This document shows positions 7,343 to 52,465 of a stretch of DNA of 64,000 bases, in pieces; positions within the stretch are counted from its first letter, which is position 1; the number at the start of each line of letters is the position of its first letter. This DNA is from an uncultured Gammaproteobacteria bacterium (GTDB lineage Bacteria; Patescibacteriota; Patescibacteriia; UBA9934). Location of the stretch: assembly GCA_964344415.1 (NCBI GenBank), contig CAYFMS010000001.1:186620-250619 (forward strand), read 5' to 3'. The notes under the pieces were generated by a model. The model saw only the letters and a list, made by a program, of their open reading frames with translations, did no database searches and had not been told where the DNA came from. The position numbers were made by a program, and so were the translations under genes.

Positions 7343-7552
7343 ATATTATCTTTTCGGTCTTTTTCTCCCTGTACATTGTCGAAATGCTTCGCCGTCCTCA
7401 CCGTACATTCCAGTACGCTTCGTCCTTGCTCGCATTTTTCTTAGCACATAAAGAAAAATCCTCGAAAATCTACTCAGTGAGTTATTTTATTGTGATTCCA
7501 CAACAAGACGTTGCTTACAAAAATCATAGCATGCATCTATTGGTTGTCAAAG

Positions 7553-7582
7553 AAAAATCACCTTGCTTTGTGGGTGATTTTT
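7553..7582 (-). terminator. hairpin plus T-run downstream of the tRNA-like gene
   Basis: AAAAATCACC-TTGCTTTGTG-GGTGATTTTT. Confidence 0.45.
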
Positions 7583-7598
7583 CGGACCCGAGCCTTCT

Positions 7599-7673
7599 GG
7601 ACTCGACGAGACTCGAACTCGCATTTCCCGGGTGACAAGCCAGGGTGAGTTTCCAATTACTCCACGAGCCCAA
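7599..7673 (-). ncRNA. tRNA-like small RNA gene (cloverleaf with imperfect anticodon stem; possible degenerate tRNA-Thr UGU)
   Basis: Minus-sense GGGCTCG TG GAGT-AATTGGAA-ACTC A CCCTGG-CTTGTCA-CCCGGG AAAT GCGAG-TTCGAGT-CTCGT CGAGTCC A. Acceptor, D-arm and T-arm (T-loop TTCGAGT) pair well; the anticodon stem has a central T.C mismatch and position 37 is C. An outer 7-bp helix CCCGAGC/GCTCGGG encloses it. Hairpin terminators sit on both sides. Confidence 0.35.
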
Positions 7674-7695
7674 GTCCATCAGCTCGGGATAATAC

Positions 7696-7730
7696 AAAAA
7701 CTCCCTAGCCATGTTGACTGGGGAGTTTTG
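7696..7730 (-). terminator. rho-independent terminator after rpsP
   Basis: Minus-sense AAAACTCCCC-AGTCAACATGGCT-AGGGAGTTTTT. Confidence 0.5.
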
Positions 7731-7806
7731 TTGCCACCCGGTTTCGGCACATGAAGTGCTCACCCTGGATGAATCCAGTTTATCATTTGAAGCTTGCTCA
7801 GTCAAA

Positions 7807-8427
7807 CTACTCAGCAGACTCTTCTGTAGCATCGGTCGATGCATCTTCCGCTGGAGCTTCTGCTTCTTCAGGAGCTTCGTCTGACGCTTCGTCGGACACG
7901 TCATCTGTGGGCGCTCCCGCCTTCGCTTCGTCCGAAGCTTCGTCGGACACGTCTTCAGTAGCTTCAGCTGCTGTATCTTCCGCTGTCGCTTCGGATTCAG
8001 TAGATTCTTCAGCCTCCTTTGCAGCTGCCTCTTCTGCAGCCTTAGCTTCTGCCTCTGCTTTTGCAGCTTCTTCAGCAGCTTTCTTTGCCTCTTCCGCTTC
8101 TCGCTTCTTTTCTTCCTCTGCAGCCTTCTTCTCTTCAATTTTAGCTGAACGCTTCTTCGTAATCGTTACAGATGAAGCCTTATCTGCCTTGATGATGCCC
8201 TCATTCACGAGCATATTGTGTACGGATGCAGATGGTTTAGCACCTTGCGAAAGCCAGTATTCAGCGCGATCTTTTTTAATCACGATTTCGCTCGGATTCT
8301 TTCTTGGATTGTAATGTCCAAGAATTTCGATTGCCGGAGACCAAGGGTCTCGACCTTTTTCTTGCACGACAATTCGGTATTGTGGTGCTTTGTGTTTTCC
8401 GGTTCTAGAAAGTCGGATAGTAACCAT
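7807..8427 (-). CDS. rpsP: 30S ribosomal protein S16 with a long acidic, Ala/Glu/Lys-rich C-terminal extension (206 aa)
   Basis: N-terminus MVTIRLSRTGKHKAPQYRIVV...EILGHYNP is canonical S16; residues from about 95 onward are low complexity (AEEAAKAEAEAKAAEE...) with the duplicated peptide DDVSDEASDEA. Confidence 0.85.
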   Translation of the reverse strand: MVTIRLSRTGKHKAPQYRIVVQEKGRDPWSPAIEILGHYNPRKNPSEIVIKKDRAEYWLSQGAKPSASVHNMLVNEGIIKADKASSVTITKKRSAKIEEKKAAEEEKKREAEEAKKAAEEAAKAEAEAKAAEEAAAKEAEESTESEATAEDTAAEATEDVSDEASDEAKAGAPTDDVSDEASDEAPEEAEAPAEDASTDATEESAE

Positions 8428-19485: not shown

Positions 19486-19508
19486 AAAACCGCCGAAGCG
19501 GTTCTTTG
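19486..19508 (-). terminator. rho-independent terminator after the RNase P RNA
   Basis: Minus-sense AACCGC-TTCG-GCGGTTTTTTG. Confidence 0.5.
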
Positions 19509-19511
19509 ATT

Positions 19512-19975
19512 TCAGAAAACCGGTAAGCCGAATTCTGTCCTCGAATTCACCAGCAGGCCAGTGAATTGAGTGATGATCATCTATCTTGGGCGTATATTGC
19601 TATACGTCTCATGCGAGCTACCAAATTTGCTCTTGCACCGGAACGGGTTTACCGCAACCCCATGTCACCATGGAGCGAAATGCGTAGCCTTACGACATCG
19701 CATTACTTTTCACGTTTCACCCAGCTGGGCTGGGTTAGTATTGTCTCTGTGGCACTTTCCCTAAGCTTCGCTAGGCATTCCAGGAACAAGCGCTCTGCGC
19801 TCTTGAATCTTGCGATTCACCAGTTCCTTGAAAGCCAAGTTTATACCTCGGTCGCCGTTAGCGACGTTCCATTGCTTTTTACGTTGCCGTAAAAAGGGTG
19901 TTCGGACTTTCCTCACGCGCATCTGCGCGAGCGATCATCTAGTTTTCTAAATAATCCAGCAAGGCTGGACCAGGG
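19512..19975 (-). ncRNA. rnpB: RNase P RNA (bacterial type-A-like)
   Basis: Minus-sense carries GAGGAAAGTCCGAAC (P4 5' strand, plus 19904-19918 reverse-complemented), ACAGAATTCGGCTTA (P4 3' strand; plus 19525-19539), GGGTGAAACG and GGTAAACCCGTTCCGGTGCAAGAGCAAAT (cf. consensus GGUAAACCCCACCCGGAGCAAGGCCAAAU). End coordinates are approximate. Confidence 0.65.
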
Positions 19976-35167: not shown

Positions 35168-35244
35168 GGGCCTGTAGCTCAGCTGGTTAGAGCGCAGAGC
35201 TTATACCTCTGTGGTCGATGGTTCGAGTCCATCCAGGCCCACCA
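35168..35244 (+). tRNA. tRNA-Ile (anticodon UAU, AUA-decoding), CCA encoded
   Basis: GGGCCTG TA GCTC-AGCTGGTTA-GAGC G CAGAG-CTTATAC-CTCTG TGGTC GATGG-TTCGAGT-CCATC CAGGCCC A CCA; perfect cloverleaf with anticodon loop CTTATAC. Confidence 0.85.
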
Positions 35245-52034: not shown

Positions 52035-52465
52035 GCGTTACTCCTTTGAATGGTTTGTTGAGTTGTTTAAGAACACGGGAACCAATGACACGCTATCAGA
52101 AGACTCATGTGCGCACAAGTGATATACGTGAACCCATGCATGTTGCCATCCTAGATTTAAATAGAACAAAAAAACCGCAGATTTCTCTACGGTCGCGATT
52201 TGGTCACCTGATTCGTGAAGGCATTTTCGTCAATGCCTAATCTTCGGTAGCGGTTGTATTGACACTTTCAAAAAAATAAGTTACTCTTTGCCCACAAATA
52301 AGCCTTCTCTTTACACATTTTGTGTGCGAGAGAAATGGTGTTAAGTCTTCCGAGTACATGGAAAGATTTGAGCAGTGACGAAGCGTACTGAAATGTACGG
52401 TGAGGAGCGGCGCAGAATCTTGACGCAGTAATCGATAGACTTGGGCACTATTTCTGTAAGAAAAA

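Follow-up and report, generated by a model that had tools for sequence, protein, structure and literature searches.

We analysed a 64,000-nucleotide (nt) stretch of DNA, hereafter the window (positions 186,620 to 250,619 of contig CAYFMS010000001.1, assembly GCA_964344415.1), from a bacterium filed as an uncultured member of the Gammaproteobacteria and placed by GTDB in the Patescibacteriota. On its minus strand, the gene for ribosomal protein S16 (rpsP) is followed by genes for a KhpA-type KH protein and for TrmD, all three assigned with Pfam, and the 464-nt spacer from the rpsP stop codon to the KH start codon holds a 74-nt tRNA-shaped core, here called the element. A first-pass annotation of the sequence had noticed this cloverleaf and had offered a degenerate tRNA-Thr, a regulatory tRNA mimic or a relic integration site as explanations. 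The element is very likely a real gene of a tRNA look-alike family and not a tRNA-Thr. The family consists of undescribed, multi-copy tRNA look-alikes of Uhrbacteria-type ultra-small bacteria; tRNA-Ala-type genes with an anti-anticodon leader were described neither in Rfam 15 nor in the literature searched, whose coverage stops short of subscription journals.

The tRNA-like element and its identity

The core runs on the minus strand from G1 (7671) to the discriminator A (7598). Its acceptor stem pairs GGGCTCG (7671-7665) with CGAGTCC (7605-7599) in 7 base pairs (bp) that include a G3.U70 wobble; the D arm is GAGU/ACUC around the loop AAUUGGAA, the variable region measures 4 nt, and the T arm reads GCGAG-UUCGAGU-CUCGU. 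U8, A14, G18 G19, U33 and the T-loop UUCRA are conserved positions of the tRNA core, and all are present in the element, as read from its sequence and the alignments. The anticodon region CCCUGG-CUUGUCA-CCCGGG, with the nominal anticodon UGU and C37, can be drawn in two registers: a 6-bp stem with one U.C mismatch and the loop CUUGUCA, or, as drawn for its relatives, a 5-bp stem that contains one G.U and is capped by an 8-nt loop. No CCA is encoded, the discriminator being followed by gaagg (...TCC A gaagg).

ARAGORN predicts a tRNA-Thr(tgt) at 7597-7672, and the generic tRNA family of Rfam, RF00005, scores 44.4 bits (gathering score 29; E 3.4e-6 for the window), below the 65.8-73.1 bits of the window's five ordinary tRNAs. 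Apart from this generic match, no family of Rfam 15 was found near the element (7350-7850) at E up to 10. Folding compared with shuffled sequences gives z -4.2 for 7560-7740 and z -5.0 for 7535-7775. Because of the ARAGORN call, the RF00005 score and these z-scores, the cloverleaf is more than chance. The arm sequences, the mismatch and C37 given in the first-pass annotation are borne out by the minus-strand sequence, and so is the outer helix CCCGAGC/GCTCGGG that it had drawn around the cloverleaf (7688-7682 with 7593-7587). The flanking terminators that it had described stand in part: a hairpin with a T run is found on each side (7726-7696 and 7583-7549), and a simple terminator scan of the minus strand flagged neither, because their loops are 9-10 nt long, so the terminator label comes from the folds and the T runs only.

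Features of the unit between rpsP and the KH gene (positions in the window)
Feature	Positions	Strand	Basis or remark
P1, promoter-like site TTGACT-17-TAAACT	7777..7805	minus	9/12 matches, TG before -10; directly after the rpsP stop codon
P0, small 5' hairpin GCAC-UUCAU-GUGC, preceded by GGUGAG	7747..7759	minus	predicted folds
Segment A, CCGGGUGGCAA	7731..7741	minus	can pair with A' (anticodon loop plus 3' anticodon-stem strand)
H1, terminator-like hairpin ACUCCCCAG...CUAGGGAGU, then UUUUU	7696..7726	minus	predicted folds
P2, second promoter-like site TCAACA-17-TATTAT	7689..7717	minus	9/12 matches; -35 element inside the H1 loop and -10 element past the U run
Outer leader-trailer helix, 5' strand CCCGAGC	7682..7688	minus	sequence and folds
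Leader GGACUU, directly 5' of G1	7672..7677	minus	can pair with the 3' acceptor strand GAGUCC; used in minimum-energy folds
tRNA-like core	7598..7671	minus	81.7 bits to the family covariance model R1
A', UUGUCACCCGG: U33, nominal anticodon UGU (7637-7635), C37, A38, 3' anticodon-stem strand	7628..7638	minus	partner of segment A
Outer helix, 3' strand GCUCGGG, then UCCGAA	7587..7593	minus	pairs with CCCGAGC
T2, terminator-like closing hairpin GAAAAAUCACC...GGUGAUUUUUC and UUUG	7549..7583	minus	predicted fold

The host genome comprises 803 kilobases (kb) in 10 contigs (labelled C1, C2 and so on), with 37 tRNAs called by ARAGORN. A canonical tRNA-Thr(UGU) with encoded CCA lies at C2:129409-129485, and its CGU and GGU isoacceptors are encoded close by. 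The three genes share the start GCC and the end GGC, giving G1-C72, C2-G71, C3-G70 and U73 before an encoded CCA, which all 34 ordinary tRNAs on contigs C1-C3 also have. This threonine acceptor and discriminator set is absent from the element, in which the nominal anticodon UGU alone fits, and its G1-C72, G2-C71, G3.U70, C4-G69 and A73 are those of the genome's tRNA-Ala(UGC) (C1:67984-68060). The degenerate tRNA-Thr of the first-pass annotation is rejected on both counts. Decoding tRNAs are expected to carry a purine at position 37, and the element has neither this purine nor the closed 5-bp stem with a 7-nt loop of decoding elongators. The G3:U70 wobble pair is described as the mark by which alanyl-tRNA synthetase (AlaRS) picks its substrate (PMC8583063, PMC6451123).

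The family in related genomes and its surroundings

A DNA search with the rpsP-KH region in 40 relatives matched the tRNA-like part on other contigs and never between rpsP and the KH gene. A family covariance model (R1) was built from 11 of these matches (alignment A2) and searched in 41 genomes. ARAGORN labels the matches of the DNA search as tRNA-Ser(tga), tRNA-Thr(agt), tRNA-Leu(taa) or tRNA-Asp(gtc), and all of them start with GGGC and end with GUCCA. Family members reach about 60-93 bits to R1, and in two relatives inspected the best match is the ordinary tRNA-Ala, at 56-57 bits. At least one match of at least 65 bits is present in 28 of the 41 related genomes; the other 13 have none above the level of tRNA-Ala. 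Copy numbers, read from the listing of matches, are about 9 in genome G036, about 10 in G006, 8-9 in G021 and 5 in G031, and within the genus they are 3, 0, 1, 2 and 0, with 2 in the host genome. The first-pass annotation had named the lack of a covariance-model match and of conserved pairing as refuting it; a model matches the element and the fold is conserved, although at other loci. Its suggestion of a tRNA-like element or regulatory tRNA mimic pointed in the right direction. The element is a complete member of a conserved look-alike family.

The second intact copy of the host genome, at C1:165278-165351 on the minus strand, has an encoded CCA, the loop AUUAUCA, a perfect 10-bp leader pairing and an 11-bp outer helix, and is not called by ARAGORN. 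A decayed third copy lies within the window directly after trmD (6182-6115, minus strand; 38.1 bits to R1). It keeps the acceptor stem GGGCCCA/UGGGUCC with G3.U70, A73, the T arm and the loop AUUAUCA, has no D arm and no CCA, and retains a 7-nt remnant of the leader pairing that overlaps the trmD stop codon; the H1-like hairpin before it doubles as the trmD terminator.

Beyond the 41 genomes, 12 genomes in a class sample of 151 have R1 matches at E up to 1e-15, nine of them outside the order. The ten matches from these nine genomes comprise five true members, from four genomes, and five ordinary tRNA-Ala or tRNA-Met, so that, among about 147 genomes belonging to the class but not to this order, 4 have verified family members. 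We also searched an exact core pattern, so narrow that it misses the window copy itself, in one genome per species of 185,579 species. It occurs at 43 places, mostly under Uhrbacteria or Patescibacteria titles: Candidatus Uhrbacteria 18, Patescibacteria group 6, Parcubacteria group 1, Magasanikbacteria 1, records titled only "bacterium" 3, automated bins titled "uncultured Gammaproteobacteria" 12, Omnitrophota 1 and Runella 1. We distrust the label of the 12 bins because they carry the full family architecture, and the Runella place, which lacks a tRNA shape, was discarded as a chance match. In viral contigs the same narrow pattern, which would miss the window copy, has no matches. Two of the core-pattern matches, L117 and L130, have the family leader pairing and the first two thirds of the cloverleaf intact and an unrelated sequence from the start of the T loop onward, which may be an insertion or an intron.

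Copies are 68-92% identical to their nearest neighbours, save for one identical pair in two genomes of the same genus, and of 59 copies only 14 are most similar to another copy of their own genome; the closest relative of the window copy is in G018, at 83% identity. The copies of the family are old.

At the orthologous site, ARAGORN found no tRNA in 28 loci fetched around the relatives' rpsP/KH matches, and the rpsP-KH spacers of the eight loci in which both genes could be placed are 83-344 nt long and have no tRNA call. Because these loci are without a tRNA call, the window copy counts as a gain of this lineage. Thus, the comparison of this spacer across relatives that the first-pass annotation had proposed does not recover the cloverleaf, and the placement inside a ribosomal operon that it had stressed is real at the window locus and does not extend to the relatives, whose copies stand beside unrelated housekeeping genes. 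Genes flanking the family units include those for ribosomal proteins, enolase, IF3, a Mur ligase, NusB and, once, AlaRS, and one copy in G006 has a fem gene at a distance of about 700 nt; we take this single AlaRS adjacency and the fem proximity as chance. Among 100 open reading frames (ORFs) flanking 27 units, no transposase, integrase or reverse transcriptase recurs.

Two features beside the window copy deserve mention in their own right. A long imperfect hairpin (about 7350-7468, minus strand; z -4.7) lies between the unit and the KH gene and is present again at about 52361-52424 on the plus strand; it recurs in the host genome upstream of tRNA-Pro, tRNA-Glu, tRNA-Gly and tRNA-Leu and in relatives, and it looks like a palindromic repeat family. 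S16 (7807-8427, minus strand) has 206 amino acids (aa), of which the Pfam domain covers only residues 8-66; the remainder is a long tail, first Ala/Glu/Lys-rich and then acidic, whose length differs between relatives (165-229 aa).

Conservation of the cloverleaf and of the leader pairing

Conservation was counted in 77 copies (33 and 44 from two fetches, with ordinary tRNAs and the decayed window copy excluded). Of the marks of alanine identity, G3.U70, G2-C71 and A73 are present in 77/77 copies, the element included, and G1-C72 in 76/77; CCA is encoded in 60/77. Pair 4:69 is variable (C-G 58, G-C 13, A-U 4 and U-A 2 of 77). In an alignment of 31 sequences, the paired cells amount to 99.5% in the acceptor stem, 99.4% in the T stem, 92.4% in the D stem and 83% in the local anticodon stem, with changes on both sides in 4/7, 4/5, 3/4 and 5/5 pairs, respectively. 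The anticodon-stem figure is low mainly because the loop-closing pair 31:39 is paired in only 14/31. None of 500 shuffles reached the observed pairing, and slid registers drop to 32-56% paired. These patterns show that the cloverleaf fold and the alanine marks are under selection. The loop has the consensus N-U-U-G-N-N-A, mostly UUGACA, with UUGUCA in the window copy. U33, U34, G35 and A38 are conserved across the family, and positions 36 and 37 are variable, 37 being mostly C or U; conservation at 34 and 35 combined with variation at 36 and 37 is not how anticodons vary.

The whole unit spans about 260 nt. A sigma-70-type promoter is followed by the small hairpin, segment A (11-13 nt), an A-rich spacer and H1; after H1 and its UUUUGU, the two strands of the outer helix enclose roughly 10 nt of leader and then the cloverleaf, and a YCCAA motif and the terminator hairpin close the unit. 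Segment A, which lies 60-85 nt upstream in the family, is the complement of the anticodon loop from U33 onward together with the 3' anticodon-stem strand. The A:A' pairing of the window copy has 11 bp including one G.U, with a Watson-Crick run of 7. With G.U allowed, runs of at least 9 bp occur in 73/77 copies at their own locus (8.1% in cross-locus pairings) and runs of at least 10 bp in 71/77 (3.3%); with Watson-Crick pairs only, runs of at least 10 bp occur in 56/77 (0.4%), and in the core-pattern-only set, runs of at least 9 bp in 27/43 (control 6.7%). Watson-Crick runs for all 37 ARAGORN-called host tRNAs are 3-7, the element being one of three at 7, and ordinary tRNAs are without this leader pairing.

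Changes on both sides are seen in 9 of 13 A:A' pairs, including loop positions 35 and 36 (partners at 36: UA 16, AU 9, CG 2, GC 1), pair counts that lean to this helix because their alignment, A4, is anchored on segment A; the cross-locus controls are free of this bias. The duplex has a median predicted energy of -19.0 kcal/mol versus -4.2 kcal/mol for the local hairpin and is the more stable of the two in 31/31 copies (-21.3 versus -6.8 kcal/mol in the window copy). Together, these patterns show co-evolution of segment A with its partner, the anticodon loop plus the 3' anticodon-stem strand. Since the local anticodon stem co-evolves as well, this 3' strand has two conserved, mutually exclusive partners.

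The outer helix covaries across loci as well: Watson-Crick runs of at least 7 are found in 16 of 33 own pairs versus 5.8% of cross-locus pairs, although the longest run with G.U allowed does not discriminate (own median 8 versus cross-locus 7). Within the order, the H1 stem ACUCCC/GGGAGU and its UUUUGU are conserved, and relatives have a hairpin with a U run at the place of T2 and, judged by eye, a hairpin with a GUGAGG-type motif at the place of P0. Most relatives also show, again by eye, a TTGACA-type site 25-35 nt upstream of segment A, and a crude promoter scan gives P1 at least 9/12 in only 12 of 38 units. P2 is strong (9-11/12) in four scored members from other orders and weak or absent in most members of this order; we therefore rejected it as a family-wide feature, since it is clear only in the window copy and in those members. 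Members of other orders (L078, L081-L084) have a different H1 stem sequence and a near-consensus promoter, TTGAAA-17-TATAAT, between H1 and G1. The final 6-11 nt of their leaders, just before G1, can pair with the 3' acceptor strand, the discriminator and CCA and covary with the acceptor as judged by eye; GGACUU of the window copy (7677-7672) is a weaker form of it. No reading frame common to the copies, either a small ORF or a tag frame, was seen by eye in the leader.

A proposed masked alanine-accepting mimic and its alternatives

The family keeps alanine acceptor identity and carries no alanine anticodon. The element is probably not an ordinary decoding tRNA, because the alanine-loading mark is constant and its own leader can pair with the anticodon arm. 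From these features we tentatively favour, at somewhat less than even odds, a tRNA mimic that accepts alanine and is withheld from ordinary decoding because its own leader masks the anticodon arm. Either attached in cis or as a separate short RNA that stops at H1, the leader would hold the anticodon loop in a duplex and block codon reading; RNase P and 3' trimming would release the tRNA-shaped body, the CCA-adding enzyme would supply CCA to the window copy, and AlaRS would load alanine through G3.U70. The product could serve as an alanine donor or alanylation sensor, not as a threonine decoder. For the alanylation step itself, we put the chances at about even. AlaRS and a protein of the CCA-adding-enzyme family are encoded in the host genome. 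The AlaRS frame (C2:174481-175827; 593 aa) matches positions 1-452 of the 552-position catalytic model, and the host enzyme may be without the usual C-terminal parts.

Three types of non-ribosomal users of aminoacyl-tRNA were sought, and only the Fem family is present: FemAB (PF02388) is above cut-off in 41/41 related genomes, with the host gene at C1:45282-45890. Alanine tailing by RqcH was rejected, NFACT_N being above cut-off in 0/41 genomes, and so was an aminoacyl-phosphatidylglycerol synthase of the MprF type, since PF09924 is found in 1/41 genomes and that one is without the family. A substitute for tmRNA was dismissed as well, the host genome having an ordinary tmRNA and smpB. FemX of Weissella is described as taking Ala from Ala-tRNA-Ala, with G2-C71 as the main determinant (PMC2655667). 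A Fem-type peptidoglycan transferase would be a candidate consumer of the alanylated element, although an unlikely one.

Several observations weigh against the masked mimic. The link to Fem is weak because Fem is encoded in all 41 genomes, including the 13 without the family, which leaves no phyletic association. No family member regularly adjoins a fem gene or any other gene, and no neighbour gene recurs among the 100 flanking ORFs by Pfam. Supplying Fem alone would leave the conserved loop (U33-U34-G35...A38) and the antisense leader unexplained. CCA is not encoded in 17/77 copies, the window copy among them. H1 may end a short RNA, which would make two RNAs of the unit, or be read through, which would make one precursor. 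Finally, related genomes are not independent samples, and the anchored alignment A4 favours the leader helix in its pair counts.

The same conserved pairing could guard against an RNA that is able to decode. As a conditional mistranslator, or half of an RNA-only pair resembling a toxin-antitoxin system, the alanylated RNA would read UCA, ACA, UUA, CCA and similar codons, with the leader as its antidote. The retained ribosomal features (U8, A14, G18 G19, invariant U33, the UUCGA T loop, CCA in 60/77), the 7-nt anticodon loop of most copies and an antisense stretch that covers exactly the anticodon loop all fit this idea, as do the patchy, multi-copy distribution (0 to about 10 per genome; 0, 0, 1, 2, 2 and 3 within the genus), the decayed copy at 6182-6115 and the gain of the window copy at a site empty in relatives. 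A pyrimidine at 37 and a broken 31:39 pair are bad for decoding, however, and most copies have C/U37 and about half the broken pair; U34 and G35 are conserved where 36 and 37 vary, unlike in anticodons; and the copies have diverged over a long time (68-92% identity to the nearest neighbour), some cross-genome pairs of 91-92% identity suggesting orthologues kept across genomes. We regard a mistranslator as distinctly improbable, and a shade more doubtful still is its elaboration into an RNA-only addiction or abortive-infection module. There, a stable Ala-loaded tRNA with a non-alanine anticodon would misplace Ala at Ser, Thr, Leu or Pro codons: a presumably short-lived antisense leader would cover the anticodon, and once transcription stopped the mask would decay and set the mistranslator free. 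About as improbable as a mistranslator is a regulatory RNA pair or self-attenuator, in which the leader (P0, A and H1) would act as a small RNA or come under the control of a terminator, with the tRNA-shaped product binding A in trans and either setting its own level by feedback at H1 or sponging the small RNA according to its alanylation state. H1 does place a GC stem and a U run right behind segment A, one promoter-like site stands ahead of A (P1) and another has its -35 within the H1 loop (P2, strong in the four members scored from other orders), and each A fits its own locus better than other loci. Yet most members of this order have a weak P2 or none, inspection by eye showed no alternative pairing that could act as an antiterminator, and feedback alone gives the product no purpose. 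Moreover, for the loop and segment A of both host copies there is no other good target genome-wide, only a few one-mismatch 11-mer matches that we judge to be about chance level.

The remaining explanations fare worse. A selfish repeat, that is, a mobile or duplicative DNA element derived from tRNA-Ala and useless to the cell, with A/A' as a DNA-level inverted repeat, would account for multi-copy, patchy and intergenic units without fixed neighbours, for the lineage-specific presence at rpsP-KH and for the decayed copy, and the hairpin repeat at about 7350-7468 also occurs in the host genome. We nevertheless think it quite improbable, because an invariant G3.U70 wobble makes sense only in RNA, all four cloverleaf stems covary, and the copies are not near-identical and have their closest relative in the same genome in only 14/59 cases. 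No transposase, integrase or reverse transcriptase recurs beside the units examined and the narrow core pattern has no viral-contig match; by copy divergence and neighbours, the family also does not fit MITE- or REPIN-type repeats, which are marked by many near-identical copies per genome with transposase-recognised terminal repeats. Still less room is left for a genuine extra or slowly decaying tRNA-Thr(UGU) isoacceptor, which we consider very improbable: ARAGORN gives the element this name and RF00005 is passed, but the canonical tRNA-Thr(UGU) exists, no acceptor or discriminator feature is shared with the three tRNA-Thr genes, C37 and the missing CCA contrast with the CCA of all 34 ordinary tRNAs on C1-C3, and relatives carry other nominal anticodons, mostly UGA. 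Scarcely credible, finally, is a signal that acts in cis on the processing or regulation of the rpsP-KH-trmD operon, or a phage attachment site left as a relic. The position between two genes of a conserved cluster would suit such a signal, and the outer helix resembles the leader-trailer helices described as aiding RNase P processing in the MALAT1 mascRNA (PMC8457004). Against it, the relatives' 28 rpsP/KH loci have no tRNA call and the eight placed spacers measure 83-344 nt, promoter and terminator come with the unit itself, and a further promoter behind it serves the KH gene. No integrase is among the ORFs listed around the site, and the cloverleaf is complete and uncut; the relic integration site of the first-pass annotation is likewise rejected, since this is a complete member of a family in which compensatory changes preserve the four stems, the outer helix and the leader pairing.

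Known systems share parts of what the masked mimic would combine. Canonical tRNA-Ala has the same 7/5 acceptor/T geometry, the first four pairs of the host tRNA-Ala(UGC) are identical to those of the element, and A73 and a mostly encoded CCA are common to both; the family, in contrast, has no alanine anticodon, a pyrimidine at 37, a 4-nt variable region, an often broken 31:39 pair, a helix of leader with trailer and a long structured leader that includes an antisense segment, and it is multi-copy and dispensable. The tRNA-like domain of tmRNA is also of the alanine-accepting type (G3.U70, A73, CCA), does not decode through an anticodon and has a helix with a distant strand where the anticodon stem would be. 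Unlike tmRNA, the family lacks a messenger part, pseudoknots and a tag frame, can still form a short anticodon hairpin and is multi-copy; the element itself is a contiguous 74-nt core, and the true tmRNA lies beside smpB at C1:337155-337534 (86.2 bits). Like tRNAs that feed Fem enzymes, the copies are additional tRNA paralogues, which the normal synthetase would charge and which would stay out of translation, and G2-C71 is invariant. The staphylococcal non-proteogenic tRNA-Gly keep their cognate anticodon, whereas the anticodon loop of the family is changed and leader-masked and there is no positional or phyletic link to fem. In Staphylococcus, D and T arms are described as setting the tRNA-Gly kept for Fem enzymes apart (PMC7826273).

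The family also resembles tRNAs whose identity and anticodon disagree, in that alanine marks are combined with nominal Thr, Ser, Leu or Pro anticodons. Allo-tRNAs and Streptomyces tRNA-Pro variants are of this kind, and an Ala-mischarged tRNA-Thr in animals has been described elsewhere. Such tRNAs are taken to decode, unlike the family with its C37/U37 loop and cognate antisense segment. The animal case is that of PMC7302879. Similar to a T-box leader, the leader base-pairs to the anticodon of a tRNA and precedes a terminator hairpin; the pairing, however, covers 10-13 bp including a stem strand, not 3-4 nt, and the partner is encoded in the same unit. No T-box match was found at E up to 10 in 7350-7850, and the leader before H1, of about 50 nt, has no Stem I or T-box bulge. 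A tRNA-shaped domain within a longer transcript is described for the mascRNA of MALAT1 (PMC8457004) and for the Y RNA YrlA (PMC4201824), and leader-trailer pairing around the tRNA-like body for the former. Both differ from the family in organism and architecture: neither is described as having alanine identity or an anti-anticodon leader, and in YrlA the ends lie on the anticodon side.

Annotation of the copies as tRNA-Ser, tRNA-Thr, tRNA-Leu or tRNA-Asp inflates and distorts the tRNA sets of ultra-small bacteria, for which every tRNA counts in arguments about decoding capacity. If the masked-mimic reading is true, genomes of about 1 Mb would keep up to ten copies of an alanine-accepting RNA whose anticodon is guarded by its own leader. 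This would be a natural case of keeping a charged tRNA out of translation and a natural two-state RNA switch built on the tRNA fold, with a possible use as a dedicated amino-acid donor or a regulated mistranslator.

Other RNA genes and contigs of the host genome have features of their own. Direct AUA-reading tRNAs are uncommon in bacteria, AUA usually being read by a lysidine-modified CAU tRNA; the window encodes a tRNA-Ile with anticodon UAU at 35168-35244 on the plus strand (73.1 bits). The RNase P RNA match at 19508-19950 on the minus strand spans 443 nt against a model of 367 positions, with about 75 nt of insertions. Contig C5 (2 kb, 39% GC) has two tRNAs without encoded CCA, unlike those of C1-C3, and contig C6 measures 1.85 kb at 66% GC; both contigs look foreign to the bin.

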